Shown here: piece after piece, positions 2 through 62,886 of the stretch
Layout: the number at the start of each line of letters is the position of its first letter
Numbering within the stretch: position 1 is the stretch's first letter
NCBI GenBank assembly: GCA_964364455.1
Contig: CAYIMR010000003.1
Location: forward strand, 23-64,022
Reading direction: 5' to 3'
DNA length: 64,000 nt
DNA from: an uncultured Planctomycetales bacterium
GTDB taxonomy: Bacteria; Omnitrophota; Gorgyraeia; Zapsychrales; Zapsychraceae
Translations under genes and position numbers: made by a program
Notes under the pieces: generated by a model
Database searches by the model: none
Told to the model about the DNA's origin: nothing
Seen by the model: the letters and a program-made list of their open reading frames with translations, nothing else

Positions 2-178
2 GATCCCGCCGAACGCGCCAAACTGCGCGCCGAGCTCGACGGCCTCATCGCGCATCTTTACGGCCTGACCGAGAACGAGTTCACGCATATTCTTAAAACT
101 TTCCCGCTCGTCCCCGAACCGGTCCGAGCCGCCGCGCTCGATGCCTACCGCGATGTCGGGAAGGGAAAGGTCAAGTGA
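2..178 (+). CDS. 3' end (window-truncated) of a restriction-modification-type protein, probably the C-terminus of a type IIG/methylase-subunit-like enzyme
   Basis: Open frame from the window edge to TGA at 176-178. It translates to DPAERAKLRAELDGLIAHLYGLTENEFTHILKTFPLVPEP..., and the LYGLTExEFxHIL..FP tail is one I recall from C-termini of type II RM methylase-subunit proteins. It is not in the ORF track because it has no start. Confidence 0.4.
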   Translation, partial: DPAERAKLRAELDGLIAHLYGLTENEFTHILKTFPLVPEPVRAAALDAYRDVGKGKVK

Positions 179-216
179 TCGCCTTGTTGAGAGGTCTATA
201 AAAAGGATTGGTTCAA

Positions 217-1332
217 ATGAATGGGCAATGGATGGGGCAATATATTGGATCAAACTCCGGCTCGATCATCGTCAATCTCGATGATATGGGGGAACATTAT
301 GAAGGTGTCGCCTTTCTACTCGATACAAATAGTCAATTGCCGGTCACTGTAGCTATGTTAAAAACAAGTGATAAGGCGAGGACATTTCAATTCAAGACGC
401 CGGCGATTCTTTCAATAAATCCTCGCACTTCGTTCATTGATACTTGGGACAACGTTAAGCAATTTTTTCCCCAGATGTTTTTTCCGAAAGAAGCAAAAGT
501 GCGTGGGGAGTGGAATGAAAGCGAATTGATATTTAGCTGCTCAACAGATATTGGAACGACAGCTTCTGCTACGCTTCCAAAAAGTAAAGCTGATAAACCG
601 TCTGAACAGGTGCCGTTGACTTTAGACTGGAATGGTTGCAAAGTGCATTTTTCTAAATTAGCAGGATCCAGGAGATATCTATTTCGTGGTCAAAATGAAC
701 CACGACGGCTTCGCACAAAATTCCATAGATCGGGGAGGGCCGATTTAGGTAGATTTCTCAATGAGGATATGCAGACTTTGCATAAACATCTCAGCGGCAG
801 AACCCGACATATATTTAATTTGAATATACCCGATGAAAATGGTGCTTTTTTCAATTTAGTTCAGCATCATGGTTACCCGACTCCGTTGCTTGATTGGACA
901 TGCTCTCCATATGTGGCTGCGTATTTTGCGTATCGTGGGATTTCTAATGCAGATGCAGCGAAGGCGCCAAATGATAAAAGAGTACGAATCATTGTATTTG
1001 ATCAAGAGCAATGGCGGAAAGATTTTCCTCAGCCATTAGTACTTAATTCAGCTTTTCCGTATTTTTCAATTATGGAATCCCTTGCGATTGACAATGCGAG
1101 GATGATTCCGCAACAGGCAGCTTCAAGTGTGACTAATATTGATGATATAGAAAGTTACATAAAGTCTAAAGAGAATGCGGAAAAAAAGTATCTGCATGCT
1201 ATCGATTTACCTATGAAAGATCGAACAGAGGTGATATGTGAATTGAGTTATATGGGTATTACTGCAGGGTCACTGTTCCCAGGGCTGGATGGCGCGTGCG
1301 AAGAATTAAAAGAACGTTTCTTTAAGATTTAA
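217..1332 (+). CDS. FRG domain-containing protein with an unrecognised N-terminal domain of about 150 aa
   Basis: YLFRGQNEPRRLRTKFHR ... LVQHHGYPTPLLDWTCSPYVAAYFAY matches the FRG-domain signature (FRG motif plus HyG.PT.LLDWT.SP..A.YFA). ATG 217 lies 10 nt after AAAAGGA. The track start at 208 is TTG. Confidence 0.75.
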   Translation: MNGQWMGQYIGSNSGSIIVNLDDMGEHYEGVAFLLDTNSQLPVTVAMLKTSDKARTFQFKTPAILSINPRTSFIDTWDNVKQFFPQMFFPKEAKVRGEWNESELIFSCSTDIGTTASATLPKSKADKPSEQVPLTLDWNGCKVHFSKLAGSRRYLFRGQNEPRRLRTKFHRSGRADLGRFLNEDMQTLHKHLSGRTRHIFNLNIPDENGAFFNLVQHHGYPTPLLDWTCSPYVAAYFAYRGISNADAAKAPNDKRVRIIVFDQEQWRKDFPQPLVLNSAFPYFSIMESLAIDNARMIPQQAASSVTNIDDIESYIKSKENAEKKYLHAIDLPMKDRTEVICELSYMGITAGSLFPGLDGACEELKERFFKI

Positions 1333-1335
1333 AGA

Positions 1336-1416
1336 AAATCAACGACGAATCAACGTACCAAGCCTGCATGCAGGCCTTTTTGACGCCTGCTCGCCAACGT
1401 TCGCGGCGCGACCGCG
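1336..1416. repeat. Intergenic module A, copy 1, directly after the stop codon and including a small GC hairpin plus T-run
   Basis: Shares AATCAACGT, the palindrome GCCTGCATGCAGGC followed by TTTTTGA, and an exact 17-mer AACGTTCGCGGCGCGAC (1396-1412 = 4001-4017) with copy 2. Confidence 0.8.
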
Positions 1417-1453
1417 TTCTTTCCTGACATGCTTTTGGTGGAAGAGCTTGTCG

Positions 1454-1514
1454 GGGGACAGGTTGAAGGCCGCGGAGGTCACAGGGCGGGACGACAGAGG
1501 GACACAATACTTAA
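1454..1514. repeat. GGGGACAGG box, then a degenerate module B, then the 16-mer GGGACACAATACTTAA
   Basis: GGGGACAGGTTGA (1454-1466) is identical to 5122-5134. GTCACAGGGCGGGACGACAG resembles module B. The 16-mer at 1499-1514 is the exact reverse complement of 44075-44090. Confidence 0.8.
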
Positions 1515-1530
1515 GTGATAGAAGGAAACA

Positions 1531-2184
1531 ATGGAAATTGAAGAGAAAATCAGGAAACGATTTGAAGAATTGTTAAAAGTAGGTGACAAATTAAAGCACG
1601 GAAATGAGAGTGACCAAGTGCAAAACGAAGCGCATCGACAGGAGTGCATTGGCTGGCTTGCGTCGGCTCAAAATATTGTGCATTTGGTGGTAGCTAATCT
1701 TGGTAATCCTTATCGATTATCAGTAGATAAGATATGTAATGCTGACCGCGGATACTGCATTCAAAGGTCTGTTGGTGAAGTCGCTGTGATTTTGAGGTCA
1801 TTGCTTTATGATGTCGACTCAGGTTTGCTGGCTTCTATTGAGGATCAAACTAAAGCTTCCGTCTTCGATGATTTTTTAGATCATGCGAAAGAATATGCAA
1901 AACAAAAATTGTCAAAAGAGGCTGGTGTGATAGCCGGTGTCGTATTCGAGGACACCTTACGGAGTATTTGTCGTGCCAAGGGCATAGCCGAAAAAGACAG
2001 GAAACTGGATTCTTTGATTGACGATCTTGTTAAGGCAGGTGTATTGAGCCAGGTAAAAGCAAAAAGAGCGAAAGTTGCGGCCCATGTCCGCACAAAAGCA
2101 ACACATGCCCAATGGGACGAATTTGATTTAGGAGATGTCAATACGACGATTGATTTTACGGAAGACTTGATCCTTAATATCTAG
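1531..2184 (+). CDS. Hypothetical helical protein with a HEPN-like (DUF4145/Abi-like) C-terminus
   Basis: RBS GAAGGAAAC precedes the ATG. The C-terminal ...LIDDLVKAGVLSQVKAKRAKVAAHVRTKATHAQWDEF carries an R-x4-H motif in the context typical of HEPN/DUF4145 domains. No other family was recognised. Confidence 0.4.
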   Translation: MEIEEKIRKRFEELLKVGDKLKHGNESDQVQNEAHRQECIGWLASAQNIVHLVVANLGNPYRLSVDKICNADRGYCIQRSVGEVAVILRSLLYDVDSGLLASIEDQTKASVFDDFLDHAKEYAKQKLSKEAGVIAGVVFEDTLRSICRAKGIAEKDRKLDSLIDDLVKAGVLSQVKAKRAKVAAHVRTKATHAQWDEFDLGDVNTTIDFTEDLILNI

Positions 2185-2203
2185 AGAGAACAGAGAAGAA
2201 CAG

Positions 2204-2268
2204 GTGACAGTCACCCGTACCCCGTACGGGGACAGGCACTTTTGAAGGGGACAGGGTGAAGGTTGGGG
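2204..2268. repeat. Intergenic module B copy 1, followed by a GGGGACAGG box
   Basis: GACAGTCACCCG (2206-2217) equals 3583-3594. GGGGACAGGCA (2228-2238) equals 3598-3608. CTTTTGAAGGGGACAGG (2239-2255) equals 5114-5130. Contains the palindromes GTGACAGTCAC and CCCCGTACGGGG. Confidence 0.8.
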
Positions 2269-2356
2269 AAATCAAAAAATCCACCGCCGAGCTTAAAGAG
2301 GGAGTCGTTTCTATTGCGGCTACGCTCAATAAACATGGCCGGAGAGAGATGATAAA

Positions 2357-3511
2357 ATGAAAGCGCAAATAAAATCTGTTAAAAGAAATGCTTTCGACGA
2401 TGCAGTGTTATTTAGAGAAATTCGCGAGTTAATTCTTTCAGCGAGAAAAGCTGTCGTCAGAAATATTGATGCCATTCAGGTGATTACGAGTTTTGAAATT
2501 GGCCGCAGAATTGTGAAACATGAACAAAAAGGCTCTGCCCGCGCTCAATACGGGAAACAACTTCTTGTTGATCTTTCAACGCATTTAACTAACGAATTCG
2601 GGAGAGGGTTTTCCCGCTCAAATTTGGAATATATGCGTAAGTTTTATTTAGCATATCATGATCGTTCCGGGCAGATTCGGCAGATGGCGTCTGCCAAATA
2701 TAAAGACACCTCTGTCTCTGAAATTTCCCAGATGCCATCTGGGAAATCTACCGTAGCGCTTAAATCCCAGATACGTTCTGGGAAATCAATCAAGCCAGCA
2801 TTTTGTTTAAGCTGGTCTCAATATGTTTTTCTCACCGGAATTAAAGACGAAGACGCGCGCAGTTTTTACGAAATAGAAGCGGCAAGCAATAATTGGACTT
2901 TACCGGAACTTACCCGTCAGTTCAATTCAGGGCTGTATGAACGTTTGGCGTTAAGCCGGGATAAAGAAGGCGTACGAAAACTGGCAAAAGAAGGTCAGAT
3001 TATTTCTAAACAAGAGGACTTGCTTAAGGAGCCGTATGTATTGGAGTTCCTCGGGCTTGATGAAAATGCCAAGTATTCAGAATCTGATTTAGAGTCCGCC
3101 ATTATTGACAAGCTTGAACATTTTCTCCTTGAACTTGGTAAAGGATTCTTGTTTGAAGCGCGCCAGAAGAGATTTACATTTGATGAGGATCATTTTTTTG
3201 TAGATTTGGTTTTTTATAATCGTTTGATCGGGTGTTATGTTCTTATTGATTTAAAGATCGGGAAACTAACGCATCAGGACTTGGGGCAAATGCAAATGTA
3301 TGTGAATTATTTTGACCGCTATGTGAAAACAAAAGAGGAAGGCTCGACCGTTGGCATTATCCTTTGCCGTAAGAAGCGTGAAGCTCTGGTCAAAATCACG
3401 CTTCCCAAAGACGCGAATATCCATGCTAAAGAATACCGCCTGTACCTGCCGTCAAAAGAAGAATTAAGACGTAAGCTTCTCGACTGGACTAAAGACCGGG
3501 ATGTTTCTTAG
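2357..3511 (+). CDS. DUF1016/YhcG-family PD-(D/E)xK nuclease domain protein, paralog 1
   Basis: N-terminal ...FEIGRRIVKHEQKGSARAQYGKQLLVDLSTHL..FGRGFSRSNLEYMRKFYLAY and C-terminal ...FFVDLVFYNRLIGCYVLIDLKIGKLTHQDLGQMQMYVNYF are the hallmark YhcG/DUF1016 blocks (D...ELK nuclease core). Confidence 0.8.
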   Translation: MKAQIKSVKRNAFDDAVLFREIRELILSARKAVVRNIDAIQVITSFEIGRRIVKHEQKGSARAQYGKQLLVDLSTHLTNEFGRGFSRSNLEYMRKFYLAYHDRSGQIRQMASAKYKDTSVSEISQMPSGKSTVALKSQIRSGKSIKPAFCLSWSQYVFLTGIKDEDARSFYEIEAASNNWTLPELTRQFNSGLYERLALSRDKEGVRKLAKEGQIISKQEDLLKEPYVLEFLGLDENAKYSESDLESAIIDKLEHFLLELGKGFLFEARQKRFTFDEDHFFVDLVFYNRLIGCYVLIDLKIGKLTHQDLGQMQMYVNYFDRYVKTKEEGSTVGIILCRKKREALVKITLPKDANIHAKEYRLYLPSKEELRRKLLDWTKDRDVS

Positions 3512-3580
3512 CTTTTAAATAAAAAAGAAGAATATGCTCAAAGGATCCGAAACAATCGAGTTCAAGACAAAGGAATGAAG

Positions 3581-3608
3581 GCGACAGTCACCCGGGCGGG
3601 GACAGGCA
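3581..3608. repeat. Intergenic module B copy 2
   Basis: Exact 12-mer and 11-mer matches to 2206-2217 and 2228-2238. It lies immediately upstream of the truncated DUF1016 fragment. Confidence 0.8.
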
Positions 3609-3650
3609 TGGTGAGCTTCGCCGCTCGCCTCGTTTCACGGGCGAAGCGGG

Positions 3651-3938
3651 TTGGCGGTTGAACTTAAAATAGGTGATTTTAAGCCGGAATATGCGGGGAA
3701 AATGCAGTTTTATCTTTCCGCGCTCAATGAGCGGGATAAGCTTGAAGGAGAAAATCCGGCTATCGGTATTATAATTTGTAGAAGTAAAAGCCGGACCGTG
3801 GTTGAATACGCGTTAAAGGATGTGCACAAGCCCATAGGGGTTTCTATCTATTCTATTAAAAAGTCTTTGCCCAAAGCATTGCAAAAATATCTGCCGTCAT
3901 CAAAGGAACTGGCGGAAAGACTGGACGCGGTGAAATGA
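3651..3938 (+). pseudogene. 5'-truncated DUF1016/YhcG remnant (only the last ~95 codons remain)
   Basis: VELKIGDFKPEYAGKMQFYLSALNE..ENPAIGIIICRSKSRTVVEYAL aligns with the C-terminal third of paralog 3 (FELKIDDFKPEYLGKLNFYLEALDR..ENPSVGIILCKSKNDEVVEYAL). No N-terminal portion, no ATG and no RBS. Confidence 0.7.
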
Positions 3939-4021
3939 AATCAGCGAAATCAACGTGCCAGGCCTGCCTGCCGGCAGGCGCTTTTGAACACCTGCTCACT
4001 AACGTTCGCGGCGCGACGGTG
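3938..4021. repeat. Intergenic module A, copy 2
   Basis: AATCAACGTGCC (3948-3959) equals 5090-5101. Hairpin GCCTGCC-TGCC-GGCAGGC followed by CTTTTGA. The 17-mer at 4001-4017 equals 1396-1412. Confidence 0.8.
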
Positions 4022-4063
4022 ATTTGAATAATAAGCCGAAAGGAGAGAATAAGAGGTGATTGA

Positions 4064-5077
4064 ATGAAGATTATTAAACCGCTTGATAATCAGTTCGGGG
4101 AAGTCGTTCATTTAATTAAAAAAGCCCGTCTTAACGCGTTGCGAAGTGTTAATCAGGAATTGATTGAGCTTTACCGGCAAATCGGAAGTTATATCAGTGC
4201 AAGAGTCGAATGCGAAGAATGGGGGAAGGGGGTTGTGACTCAGCTGGCTGTGCATCTACGGGAAAGGCTCCCGGATTCAACAGGCTATTCCTCGCAAAAT
4301 CTCTGGCGTATGAAGCAGTTTTATGAGGTATACCGCAAATATCCAAAACTCTCAACACTGTTGAGAGAATTAGGCTGGTCCAGCCACCTGCATATTGTCT
4401 CTAAAACAAAAACTATCGAAGAAAAAGAATTTTATCTCCGGCTTGCCATTAAGGAAAGATATTCCGTCCGCGAACTGGAGCGCCAGATTGACAGCGGTTT
4501 ATTTGAACGCGTTGTGCTTTCCAGAAAGAAAGTTCCGGCATCGCTGACACAAAAGCATCCTGAAGCGCCGGAAGTATTCAAGGATGTCTATGTCCTTGAT
4601 TTTCTTAACCTGCCTGAAGTTCACAGCGAGACCGGCTTGCGAAGGAGCATTGTTTCTAACCTGAAGAATTTTATTCTTGAATTCGGCAAAGACTTTGCAT
4701 TTGTTGGCCAGGAACACCGGCTTCAAGTCGGTAAAAACGATTATTTCATCGACCTTCTGTTTTTTCACCGCGGCTTACGCTGTCTTGTTATGTTTGAGTT
4801 GAAGATAGACGATTTCAAACCCGAGTATCTGGGCAAGTTGAATTTTTATCTCGAGGCTTTAGACAGGGATGTAAGAAAACCGGATGAGAATCCGAGCGTT
4901 GGAATCATCCTCTGCAAATCAAAAAACGATGAAGTGGTGGAGTATGCCTTAAGCCGCAATCTTTCGCCCGCGCTTGTTGCCGAGTACAAGACAAAGCTTA
5001 TTCCCAAGAAGATATTGCAGAAAAAGCTGCATGAGTATTACCTGTTGGGCGAAAGCGGGGCAAGGAAGGAAAAATAA
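4064..5077 (+). CDS. DUF1016/YhcG-family PD-(D/E)xK nuclease domain protein, paralog 3
   Basis: GSYISARVECEEWGKGVVTQLAVHLRERLPDSTGYSSQNLWRMKQFY ... YFIDLLFFHRGLRCLVMFELKIDDFKPEYLGKLNFYL. RBS GAGGTGA lies upstream of the ATG. Confidence 0.8.
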   Translation: MKIIKPLDNQFGEVVHLIKKARLNALRSVNQELIELYRQIGSYISARVECEEWGKGVVTQLAVHLRERLPDSTGYSSQNLWRMKQFYEVYRKYPKLSTLLRELGWSSHLHIVSKTKTIEEKEFYLRLAIKERYSVRELERQIDSGLFERVVLSRKKVPASLTQKHPEAPEVFKDVYVLDFLNLPEVHSETGLRRSIVSNLKNFILEFGKDFAFVGQEHRLQVGKNDYFIDLLFFHRGLRCLVMFELKIDDFKPEYLGKLNFYLEALDRDVRKPDENPSVGIILCKSKNDEVVEYALSRNLSPALVAEYKTKLIPKKILQKKLHEYYLLGESGARKEK

Positions 5078-5150
5078 AAATCAACGAAAAATCAACGTGC
5101 CGGGCACTTTTGACTTTTGAAGGGGACAGGTTGAGGGCGAGGGGTTGGGA
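5077..5150. repeat. Module A copy 3 (short form) fused to a GGGGACAGG box
   Basis: AAAATCAACGAAAAATCAACGTGCC, then hairpin GTGCC-G-GGCAC with T-run, then CTTTTGAAGGGGACAGGTTGAGGGC. Exact matches to 3948-3959, 2239-2255 and 1454-1466. Confidence 0.8.
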
Positions 5151-5245
5151 AGTGGAATTTGAAGAAGCTAAAGGACGAAGGGCTTATGAAACGCATTGGC
5201 CCGGACAAAGGCGGGCATTGGGAGGCTTAGGTTTTTTGCAAGGCA

Positions 5246-7348
5246 ATGAAAATCTTACAAGTTTTACCTGAACTCAACGTCGGCGGCGTGGAAACCGGGA
5301 CGGTCGATCTGGCCAGGTATCTGGCCGCCCACGGCCATCAATCCGTCGTTGTGTCCAACGGCGGCGAATTGGTCAGTGATCTGGAAGCCGCAGGGACGCG
5401 ACATTACACGTTGCCCGTCCACAAAAAGTCGTTATGGTTGATGATAAAATGTGTCAAGGCGTTACGCGCGATCATTCAAAGTGAAAAAGCGGATATCGTG
5501 CACGCCCGCTCCCGGGTGCCGGCCTGGATCGCCTATTTTGCCTGCCGCGGGACGCAAGCCGCGTTTATCACAACTTGTCACGGGTATTATGGCAATCGTA
5601 TTTTTAGCCAGGTGATGGGCTGGCCCAAGTTGGTCATCGTGCCCAGCCGGGTCATCGGGCGGCACATGATGGAACATTTCGGCACTTTGTCCAATAGCAT
5701 CCGTTATATTCCCCGCAGTGTGGATGTGGAAAAGTTCCGGGTGCAGCGTCCGGTCATTGAGGGAAAATCGTTTTTTACCGTTACGATCGTGGGGCGGCTG
5801 ACGCCCTTGAAGGGTCATACGTTCTTTTTACGCGCGATGGCAAAGGTGGTGCGCGCGATGCCCAATATCCGCGTTTGGATCATCGGGGACGCGCCGGCGG
5901 CCAAACAATCGTACAAGGCCGAACTGCAAGTCCTCACCCATCGTCTGGGGATCCAGGAACATGTTGAATTTTTAGGGAATCGCAAAGACGTTCCGCAACT
6001 CTTGGCCCAAACGGATGTGCTTGTCCTTTCCACGGTGACCCAGGAAGCTTTTGGGAGGGTGATTCTGGAAGCCCAGGCCGCAGGCGTTCCGGTGGTTGCC
6101 ACCAGTGTTGGCGGTGTCGTTGATATCATCGATGACGGGCACACGGGTTTATTGGTAATGCCTAAAGATCCGGATGGCATGGCCAAAGCTGTGATGCGCG
6201 TTCTGGGCGATAAAAAGTTTGCCGCCCAGTTGGCCGGCGCGGCGCGGCAAAAATTGCAGGAAAACTTCACTCTGGGACATATGGCGTCCCAAACGTTAAA
6301 AGTTTACGAGGAATTGCTCAATTCCCTGAATATCCTGGCCATCAAGATCAGCGCGGCGGGAGATGTGGTTTTGGTAACGGCATCATTGAAAGCGTTGCGG
6401 GAAAAATATCCGCGGGCGAAGATCTATTGCCTTGTCGGAAGAGAATCGCGCAAGATATTGCAGAGCTGCCCCTATCTGGATGGGCTTGTTGTCGATGACA
6501 CGCGGCAGAAAAGCAAAGGATGGATCAATGCGATACGCTTGTCGCATCGGCTGCGCAAATACCGTTTTGACAAGATCGTCGATTTTCAAAACAGCCGTAA
6601 AAGCCACCTGCTGGCGTTTTTAAGCTTCCCTCGGGAAAGCTACGGGTACGACAACGGAAAATGGAGTGGACTGCTGACGAATCCGTTAAAACAATATCGT
6701 AATGATATCCCGGCGGTCGACCATCAATTTCAGTTATTGCAAACGATGGGAATAACCACTCCGAAAGAATTGGCTTTGGAGCTTTGGCCTTCTGAGAAGG
6801 ACCGTAAATATGCCCAAGAGCTCCTCGACGCGGAATGGCTGGGCAACGTGACCCGGATCGTTGGCATCAACATCGCCGCTTCGCAAAAATGGCAGACGAA
6901 GAATTGGCCCATGGAATATATCGCGCGTTTATGCGACCTGCTTTCCGGCAAAAGTGTCCGCGTGCTCATCACCGGAATGGAGAAGGATAAACCTTTGGTC
7001 GAAGCGCTTCTGGCGCAGACGAGGTCCAAACCCGCTATTTTCGTGGGGCGTACCGATATCTTGCAATTGGCCGCGCTCATTGAACGCTGTAAAGTTTATA
7101 TCACGCCGGACTCGGCGCCGTTGCATGTCGCCGCGGCCATGCGCACCCCGCTGGTCGCGTTCTTTGGCCCGACGGATTCCCGGAGGCACCAGCCGCCGGC
7201 TAAAAATATGATCATCCTGGAAAAGAAACCCGCTTGCGCGCCCTGTTACAGTCCGCGGTGCCTGATCATGACGCACGTGTGCATGCGCGACATAACCCCC
7301 GAGGAAGTCGCCGGCAAGGTTGAGCTGTTGATGGATACAAAACAATGA
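5246..7348 (+). CDS. Fusion protein: GT4 glycosyltransferase (N-terminal ~355 aa) plus GT9 heptosyltransferase-like domain (C-terminal)
   Basis: N-terminus: MKILQVLPELNVGGVETGTVDLARYL...EAFGRVILEAQAAGVPVVATSVGG (GT4 EX7E region). C-terminus: ILAIKISAAGDVVLVTASLKALREKYP...DSAPLHVAAAM (GT9/RfaF-like). Confidence 0.75.
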   Translation: MKILQVLPELNVGGVETGTVDLARYLAAHGHQSVVVSNGGELVSDLEAAGTRHYTLPVHKKSLWLMIKCVKALRAIIQSEKADIVHARSRVPAWIAYFACRGTQAAFITTCHGYYGNRIFSQVMGWPKLVIVPSRVIGRHMMEHFGTLSNSIRYIPRSVDVEKFRVQRPVIEGKSFFTVTIVGRLTPLKGHTFFLRAMAKVVRAMPNIRVWIIGDAPAAKQSYKAELQVLTHRLGIQEHVEFLGNRKDVPQLLAQTDVLVLSTVTQEAFGRVILEAQAAGVPVVATSVGGVVDIIDDGHTGLLVMPKDPDGMAKAVMRVLGDKKFAAQLAGAARQKLQENFTLGHMASQTLKVYEELLNSLNILAIKISAAGDVVLVTASLKALREKYPRAKIYCLVGRESRKILQSCPYLDGLVVDDTRQKSKGWINAIRLSHRLRKYRFDKIVDFQNSRKSHLLAFLSFPRESYGYDNGKWSGLLTNPLKQYRNDIPAVDHQFQLLQTMGITTPKELALELWPSEKDRKYAQELLDAEWLGNVTRIVGINIAASQKWQTKNWPMEYIARLCDLLSGKSVRVLITGMEKDKPLVEALLAQTRSKPAIFVGRTDILQLAALIERCKVYITPDSAPLHVAAAMRTPLVAFFGPTDSRRHQPPAKNMIILEKKPACAPCYSPRCLIMTHVCMRDITPEEVAGKVELLMDTKQ

Positions 7349-62686: not shown

Positions 62687-62886
62687 AGCCGATAAAGGTA
62701 AACCCGCCGAAAGGCTCCCTTTGGGGAGGGGAAACCCGGGGACACAAAACCACAGGCCTACATTATCCAATACCTAAAAGGCCCTTCGGAAACGTCGGGG
62801 CAGTTCAAGACCATTGGATTGGTTGACGATAATATGGCGGCTGGGTTGCCGAAGACAAAGAGGGGTTAAACCCCACTTTATCGGCT
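62687..62886 (+). ncRNA. Candidate structured small RNA of about 200 nt, class not recognised (a 6S-like RNA is one possibility)
   Basis: The 5' AGCCGATAAAG (62687-62697) pairs with the 3' CTTTATCGGCT (62876-62886). Internal helices include CTCCC/GGGAG (62715-28), GGGG-TTAAA-CCCC (62862-74) and ATCCAAT/ATTGGAT (62764-70/62813-19). No convincing ORF. An upstream promoter and downstream strong hairpins bound it. Confidence 0.45.

Follow-up and report, generated by a model that had tools for sequence, protein, structure and literature searches.

Two adjacent genes on the forward strand were analysed near the start of a 64,000-nucleotide (nt) stretch of DNA, referred to as the window, from an uncultured Planctomycetales bacterium assigned in GTDB to the Omnitrophota (assembly GCA_964364455.1, contig CAYIMR010000003.1, positions 23 to 64,022). 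Gene 1 encodes a protein with an FRG domain, and gene 2 encodes a small HEPN-like protein; the original prediction, made from the sequence alone, joined them into a two-gene defence module next to a restriction-modification (RM) gene. The analysis reported here does not support such a module and points to two single-gene candidates. The listing and translation of open reading frames (ORFs) confirmed both genes at the coordinates given below, and they are not a chance pattern. The two genes and the repeats between them are as follows:

217–1332, + strand: gene 1, FRG-domain protein of 371 amino acids (aa), identified by Pfam FRG, PADLOC PDC-S15, an AlphaFold (AF2) model and conserved motifs
1335–1412, + strand: intergenic repeat module A, with a GC hairpin at 1362–1375 followed by CTTTTTGA; terminator-like, directly 3' of the FRG stop codon
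1445–1469, + strand: copy of intergenic repeat module B (GGGGACAGGKTGARGG), identified by repeat counts
1531–2184, + strand: gene 2, HEPN-like (DUF4145-type) protein of 217 aa, identified by Pfam, AF2, Foldseek and invariant R and H residues

Gene 1 begins with the ATG at 217 and ends with the stop codon at 1330–1332; since the homologs in a 28-homolog alignment also begin with MNGQW, 217 is taken as the right start. The predicted FRG domain was recognised by Pfam (PF08867) well above the cutoff (E 2.3e-18, 67.3 bits vs a cutoff of 25) at residues 153–244 (nt 673–948). The sequence FRGQ is located at residues 156–159 (nt 682–693), and F156-R157-G158-Q159 is invariant in the 28 homologs; HHGYPTPLLDWTCSPYVAAYFA occupies residues 217–238, and QHHGYPTPLLDWTCSPYVAAYFA residues 216–238. 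The invariant motifs of the family are FRGQ, QHHGYPTPLLDW, PQQ and GLDG.C, and the invariant residues of the FRG core and the C-terminal region are R157, H217-H218-G-Y-P-T-P-L-L-D-W, S230-P-Y, P298-Q-Q, D309-D-I-E and G356-L-D-G.

The description of the FRG domain as functionally uncharacterised holds only in part. No experimental function is assigned to it, but the domain is already represented by the listed single-gene candidate PDC-S15 and by a prediction of enzymatic activity. PMC9503650, citing Burroughs & Aravind 2020, places Frg, which has the same Pfam domain as the window protein, as a clade of the ADP-ribosyltransferase (ART) superfamily and predicts it to be an NADase-type antiviral effector. 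Judged from the sequence, the conserved R (FRG), S/T-x-S (LLDWTxSPY) and Q-Q of the window protein could match the ART-type triad. The PDC systems are untested phage defence candidates found embedded in BREX, DISARM or RM systems (bioRxiv 10.1101/2024.01.29.577857). Fourteen PADLOC PDC-S15 models match the FRG protein, the best one at residues 138–365 (E 1.4e-36), and the likeness covers the FRG core and the C-terminal region; the window gene is solo, beside an RM-type gene, which resembles the embedded position by which PDC-S15 was defined.

The N-terminal extension of about 150 aa, noticed earlier as a domain without a recognised family, proved real: thousands of homologs of about 370 aa align with the protein at 100% coverage. 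A word-indexed search yielded 2918 homologs, the top 120 of which are all full length, and the C-terminal extension beyond the FRG core is conserved as well. In the AF2 model (predicted local distance difference test score, pLDDT, 86.6; predicted template modelling score, pTM, 0.83), residues 1 to ~130 (nt 217–606) are predicted to form an antiparallel beta-barrel, for which the Foldseek matches in the PDB are designed fluorescence-activating beta-barrels, nitrobindin, lipocalins, fatty-acid-binding proteins (FABPs) and VtrC, that is, small-molecule-binding barrels. A lipocalin-like beta-barrel is thus predicted for the N-terminal domain. The best PDC-S15 model lacks this part of ~130 aa and stops short of it, yet every one of the top 120 homologs retains the barrel. 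Proteins with the barrel and the FRG domain constitute a distinct, very large subfamily, the N-terminal fold of which has, to our knowledge, not been remarked on previously.

In the 217-aa product of gene 2, the sequence AAHVRTKATH occupies residues 183–192 and contains the expected Rx4H motif, R187-T-K-A-T-H192 (nt 2089–2106), the R187 and H192 of which are invariant in 29 sequences. The AF2 model of the protein is all-helical, with nine helices (pLDDT 86.4), and divides into a helical domain at the N-terminus (residues 1 to ~105) and a HEPN domain at the C-terminus (~108–217). The HEPN fold, which had been sought by structure prediction, was found in this way: the first 19 Foldseek matches in the PDB are HEPN or HEPN-type proteins (probability 0.9–1.0, target-normalised template modelling (TM) score 0.47–0.64, ~120 residues), among them TM0613, the HEPN toxin of HEPN-MNT, TT1696, ST0689, AF_0298, SO_3166, MtlR and AbiV. 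Nearly all matches being HEPN proteins, the assignment as DUF4145/HEPN-like stands. In the family, 9 of 29 members match Pfam DUF4145 (PF13643) and 5 of 29 match HEPN (PF05168) at E<=0.01. HEPN domains normally dimerise, which results in a composite Rx4H RNase site.

Homologs of gene 2 are numerous: the word-indexed search found 1215, very many of them full-length, and an exhaustive profile search found 173, 820 and 2440 clusters (50% identity) at E<=1e-30, 1e-10 and 1e-3, respectively. Most of the top matches are 210–230 aa long, and essentially none are fused to another domain. Distant relatives of ~220 aa, annotated as HEPN or DUF4145, occur alone among toxin-antitoxin pairs on plasmids of Acinetobacter and Serratia. 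No PADLOC model matches the 217-aa protein even at E<=10, NCBIfam has no model for either window protein, and a search of solved structures with the sequence profiles of both families gave nothing meaningful. On the basis of sequence and predicted structure, the protein probably adds a new member, at the level of a family, to the stand-alone HEPN proteins of the DUF4145 type.

The neighbourhoods of the two families were surveyed in six-frame ORFs searched with hidden Markov models built from the alignments of the FRG family (A1) and the HEPN-like family (A2). The sample comprised 62 genome loci for the HEPN-like family, 80 metagenome loci for the FRG family, viral contigs (3 HEPN-like and 17 FRG) and contigs for 10 close-homolog proteins. 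At least 1 kb of sequence was available downstream in 63 of the 102 FRG loci and on both sides in 45 of them; both sides were covered to at least 1 kb in 54 of the 72 HEPN-like loci. The HEPN-like gene was found at none of the 102 FRG-family loci (0/102), and an FRG gene of any type was found at 1/72 HEPN-like loci. A conserved neighbourhood of the two families, the lack of which had been named in advance as counting against the pair, was not found.

The only contig that reproduces the arrangement of the window (ENA ERZ1292622, contig Hain_H52_02um_R2_80117, 1591 nt) is 99.9% identical to window positions 105–1695 and is derived from the same organism, so that it is not independent evidence. 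Its name suggests the Hainich H52 well (0.2 um) as the source, which indicates the likely environment and organism of the window. The sole other locus with an adjoining FRG-type ORF and HEPN-like gene, here L024, belongs to a betaproteobacterial metagenome-assembled genome. At positions 158–4042 it contains, in this order, a 99-aa DUF4145 ORF, a DUF6615 protein, BrnT/BrnA, the HEPN-like gene and a short FRG gene. The DUF4145, DUF6615 and BrnT/BrnA genes there are further toxin and defence genes that crowd the locus.

No recurrent partner was detected for either gene. No single Pfam family accounts for more than 3/106 immediate neighbours of the HEPN-like family or 2/110 of the FRG family, the contexts of the latter being variable, and no shared partner emerged when all ORFs within 3 kb were clustered by BLAST; the survey thus points to FRG as a single gene with no obligatory partner. 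PADLOC matches among the neighbours are scattered and comprise PD-T7-1, UG13 reverse transcriptase, PD-T4-10, PD-T7-5, DpdF, HmaC, PD-Lambda-1, AbiEii and type I/IIG RM genes. For both genes, the contexts of the nearest homologs (70–81% identity) are unrelated. Close FRG homologs were found after leuA, after an EcoRI-methylase/GmrSD pair, beside a phage integrase, and beside MauJ and M78; close homologs of the HEPN-like gene were found between housekeeping genes, after trmE and before PLD and DUF4062, before DUF5677, and before TIR.

Several candidate partners were considered and rejected. In two contigs with the closest HEPN-like homolog (81% identity; L184 254–1851, L185 216–1813), a gene for a 283-aa TIR-domain protein is located 84 nt 3' of it, and this arrangement is confined to one lineage (L184–L186). 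The candidates next to FRG homologs (a 218-aa gene overlapping FRG in L003 and a 173-aa gene in L001) are unrelated to the window proteins, and those upstream of the HEPN-like gene (214 aa in L155, 217 aa in L157) are unrelated both to the window proteins and to each other.

The organisation of the two genes in the window is not operon-like. The FRG and HEPN-like genes are separated by 198 nt, in which two sites with a terminator pattern (1362–1375 and 1402–1416; a pattern match only) and junction repeats were found. Module A, AAATCAACG..AAATCAACGTRCC followed by a variable GC hairpin and CTTTTGA, is present at 1335–1412, 3939–4017 and 5077–5110; the hairpin sequence differs in each copy and the T-run is the same, so that at the level of pattern the three copies look like conserved terminators. 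RNA folding gave energies for four intergenic regions not better than those of shuffled sequence, so that the evidence for terminators is one of pattern only. Module B, with the structure AGGYGACAGTCACCCG..GGGGACAGGCA / CTTTTGAAGGGGACAGGKTGARGG, is present at 1445–1469, 2202–2262, 3579–3608 and 5113–5137. Three copies of its stretch GGGGACAGGKTGARGG were observed vs 0.11 expected, and the core GGGGACAGG occurs five times vs 0.31 expected, every time between island genes. Neither module occurs elsewhere in the window or in the 177 related loci compared. The repeats recur solely between the genes of the island and suggest that separate genes were inserted serially at one site. Where the island ends on the right, module B directly follows module A; it looks as though an ancestral A-B site had been split by earlier insertions. 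An integron gene-cassette array was also considered as a possible reading: the fit to attC is poor (6/7 of the core consensus, by eye), and the modules do not follow every gene. No integrase is visible in the window, which starts inside the upstream gene.

Accordingly, a two-gene FRG and HEPN module is not supported, because there is no conserved co-occurrence and no conserved neighbour, and the 198-nt gap contains a terminator-like site and junction repeats.

The genome context of the pair is represented by the following features:

2–178, + strand: 3' end of a DNA-methyltransferase (RM-type) gene, the last 58 codons and the stop codon (176–178); the gene is cut by the window start
2202–2262, + strand: intergenic repeat module B, long form, 3' of the HEPN-like gene
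2357–3511, + strand: YhcG/DUF1016 PD-(D/E)xK nuclease paralog 1 (YhcG_C E 1.4e-49; DUF1016_N E 8.2e-36; PDC-S02 E 4.3e-133)
3651–3938, + strand: YhcG_C fragment, 5'-truncated, a pseudogene remnant; its Pfam match covers only model positions 75–157 of 157
4064–5077, + strand: YhcG/DUF1016 paralog 3 (PDC-S02), identified by Pfam and PADLOC

The defence-island setting proposed for the two genes was recovered. The GC content is 41–47% from 500 to 5000 and 50–58% beyond, and the low-GC stretch is a small acquired island that starts 38 nt past the methyltransferase stop codon and ends at about 5100–5250; it carries the PADLOC candidates PDC-S15 and PDC-S02 downstream of an RM-type methyltransferase. 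The assignment of the upstream gene to the RM type agrees with the match of the ORF end 2–175 to the C-termini of annotated DNA methyltransferases of ~1170–1190 aa from cyanobacterial plasmids (65–75% identity, tblastn), while its PADLOC match to the C-terminus of type IIG restriction endonuclease-methyltransferases is weak (E 0.033). In the two cyanobacterial plasmids (L181 and L182), the methyltransferase homologs of ~1170–1190 aa come after a gene for a 'helicase-related protein'. The cargo 3' of the methyltransferase consists of small hypothetical proteins in one plasmid and of an ATP-binding protein and DUF4276 in the other; since the two carry different cargo, the region 3' of this methyltransferase seems to be a site at which the cargo varies.

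The PD-(D/E)xK paralogs expected downstream were identified as YhcG/DUF1016, and PDC-S02 is matched by both full genes and by the 5'-truncated fragment. The two full genes have diverged from one another. Because the truncated fragment is located between them, the same nuclease family is suggested to have been acquired and to have decayed repeatedly at this spot. Within paralog 1, positions 2670–2790 contain three in-frame units of ~39 nt, each with a DNA palindrome (2680–2696, 2726–2744 and 2765–2783); the units encode a repeated SQ(I/M)(R/P)xGKS-like peptide, which forms an insertion of ~40 aa inside the DUF1016_N domain. Far from the island, at 62687–62853 on the + strand, a match to the c-di-GMP-I riboswitch was found (Rfam RF01051, 50.6 bits vs a gathering score of 35), covering 167 nt for a model of 87 positions and therefore containing a large insertion.

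Among known proteins, the single-protein HEPN defences are the nearest functional analogues of gene 2. DUF4145 is an established HEPN family (PMC3710099), and its members among single-protein defences comprise RAZR (PMC13017515), BxaP (PMC10799925) and Ishtar (bioRxiv 10.64898/2026.07.06.735840). RAZR (PD-T7-4) is a single-protein abortive-infection RNase composed of a zinc finger and a DUF4145-HEPN domain, which cleaves single-stranded RNA and for which the R and H residues are essential (PMC13017515). Similar to RAZR, the product of gene 2 is small and stand-alone, with a non-catalytic N-terminal domain and a C-terminal DUF4145-type HEPN domain, and RAZR needs no partner gene. The N-terminus of RAZR is a Cys4 zinc ribbon, whereas that of gene 2 is helical and lacks the Cys4 pattern; the catalytic residues of RAZR are R146 and H154, whereas the spacing in gene 2 is Rx4H; and the PD-T7-4 model gives no match to gene 2 at E<=10. 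With its helical N-terminus and no match to a PADLOC model, the 217-aa protein is not a member of the RAZR family.

BxaP, Ishtar1/2 and HEC-08 (DUF4145/DUF3644) are also one-gene systems, often located near BREX, RM or Hma systems, in which the HEPN RNase domain is the predicted effector (PMC10799925; bioRxiv 10.64898/2026.07.06.735840; bioRxiv 10.1101/2024.01.29.577857). In these proteins the HEPN domain comes first and is joined to a C-terminal domain of HEAT-like, alpha/beta or zinc-ribbon type, whereas in gene 2 it comes last and is preceded by a helical domain. Structurally, the C-terminal half of gene 2 is matched best by proteins of the HEPN-MNT type II/VII toxin-antitoxin systems (e.g. 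PDB 7AE9, 5YEP), with which it has the Rx4-6H motif in common; gene 2 differs from them in the extra N-terminal domain of ~105 aa and in the lack of an adjacent MNT gene or conserved neighbour at 72 loci.

Taken together, the two genes are probably independent, self-contained, single-gene defence-type genes that adjoin each other in a small island, acquired horizontally, just downstream of the RM-type methyltransferase gene. Their adjacency is due to chance, at a hotspot of defence genes or of integration where three YhcG nuclease paralogs have also accumulated. The reading as two independent genes is carried by the domain identities, the predicted folds and motifs, the stand-alone architecture, the lack of conserved partners and the island context. 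Several observations weigh against it. The Pfam DUF4145 match of the 217-aa protein is borderline (E 1.3e-4, 22.4 bits vs a cutoff of 23.1), and the Foldseek E-values of its HEPN matches are weak (0.05–1). Many of the FRG loci are short metagenome contigs. L024 is an independent locus where a HEPN-like gene with 52% identity is followed, after 97 nt, by a gene for a 245-aa FRG protein. Among the neighbours sampled for the two families, most cannot be recognised as defence genes, so that the defence role, predicted from domains and contexts, rests on a minority of the contexts and on domain logic.

A single two-gene defence system, acting as sensor plus effector or as cooperating effectors, would agree with the adjacency of the genes on the same strand in a defence-type island and with L024, and the TIR protein encoded after the closest HEPN-like homolog, another NADase-type domain, could hint at a theme of RNase plus NADase. 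The FRG protein of L024, however, belongs to a different, barrel-less short subfamily (E 2.8e-7 vs A1), and the gene order there is reversed relative to the window; given also the counts of co-occurrence, the solo position of the close homologs of both genes, the gap with its terminator-like site and junction repeats, and the origin of the only contig of the same arrangement from the same organism, such a system is very improbable. It is unlikely, too, that the island genes are accessory cargo of the upstream helicase/methyltransferase RM-like system, in the manner of a second-line suicide module released upon RM inhibition, as for BxaP with BREX or PrrC with type I RM. The short distance of the island start from the methyltransferase stop codon, the variable cargo that the homologous methyltransferases on cyanobacterial plasmids also precede, and the definition of PDC-S15 and PDC-S02 from genes embedded in BREX, DISARM or RM (bioRxiv 10.1101/2024.01.29.577857) are consistent with this, but most homologs of both families are not located beside RM genes, and the remainder of the upstream system lies beyond the window.

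One or both genes may also have no immune role, gene 2 being a selfish toxin (addiction) gene or a stress-response RNase, gene 1 an NAD/ADP-ribose-related housekeeping or mobile-element enzyme, and the island an integration hotspot. Many homolog neighbourhoods consist of housekeeping genes, FRG homologs also adjoin integrases and insertion sequence (IS) elements, and the distant DUF4145/HEPN relatives on the Acinetobacter and Serratia plasmids, which are small, are located among toxin-antitoxin pairs. This alternative is nevertheless quite unlikely: no conserved antitoxin-like neighbour was found at the 72 HEPN-like loci and the flanking gaps held no plausible small ORF, defence genes recur among the neighbours, and all experimentally studied stand-alone DUF4145-HEPN proteins found in the literature act in defence (PMC13017515, PMC10799925).

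For two independent defence genes, we infer the enzymatic activities, triggers and defence role as follows. In the product of gene 1, the lipocalin-like N-terminal barrel would be a sensor or ligand-binding module that controls the FRG catalytic domain, and the FRG domain would consume NAD+, produce ADP-ribose derivatives or ADP-ribosylate targets, and thus act as an abortive-infection effector. In the product of gene 2, the N-terminal regulatory domain of four to five helices would keep the C-terminal DUF4145-type HEPN domain inactive by auto-inhibition; a trigger acting via the N-terminal domain would lead to RNA cleavage and arrest of the infected cell, as with RAZR and BxaP. A more far-reaching and somewhat doubtful possibility is that the 217-aa protein represents an unrecognised, widespread family of one-gene immune RNases, in which the HEPN domain is gated by a new helical sensor, and that the neighbouring barrel and FRG protein is a ligand-gated NAD+-targeting effector, the barrel binding a small-molecule ligand, perhaps a nucleotide signal of phage or host origin, with no dedicated signal synthase nearby.

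A conserved pair would have represented a new defence architecture of RNase plus NADase, which is not the case. The island is an ordinary defence island, and its description is incremental and will not surprise specialists; each of the two genes is a clean single-gene candidate. The FRG protein is a well-modelled representative of the PDC-S15/FRG candidates with an unnoticed, predicted lipocalin-like barrel, and the HEPN-like protein is one of a large family of stand-alone DUF4145-HEPN proteins missed by current defence-finder models. If active, either gene would be one more single-protein HEPN or NADase abortive-infection system, and FRG could gain its first experimental function.

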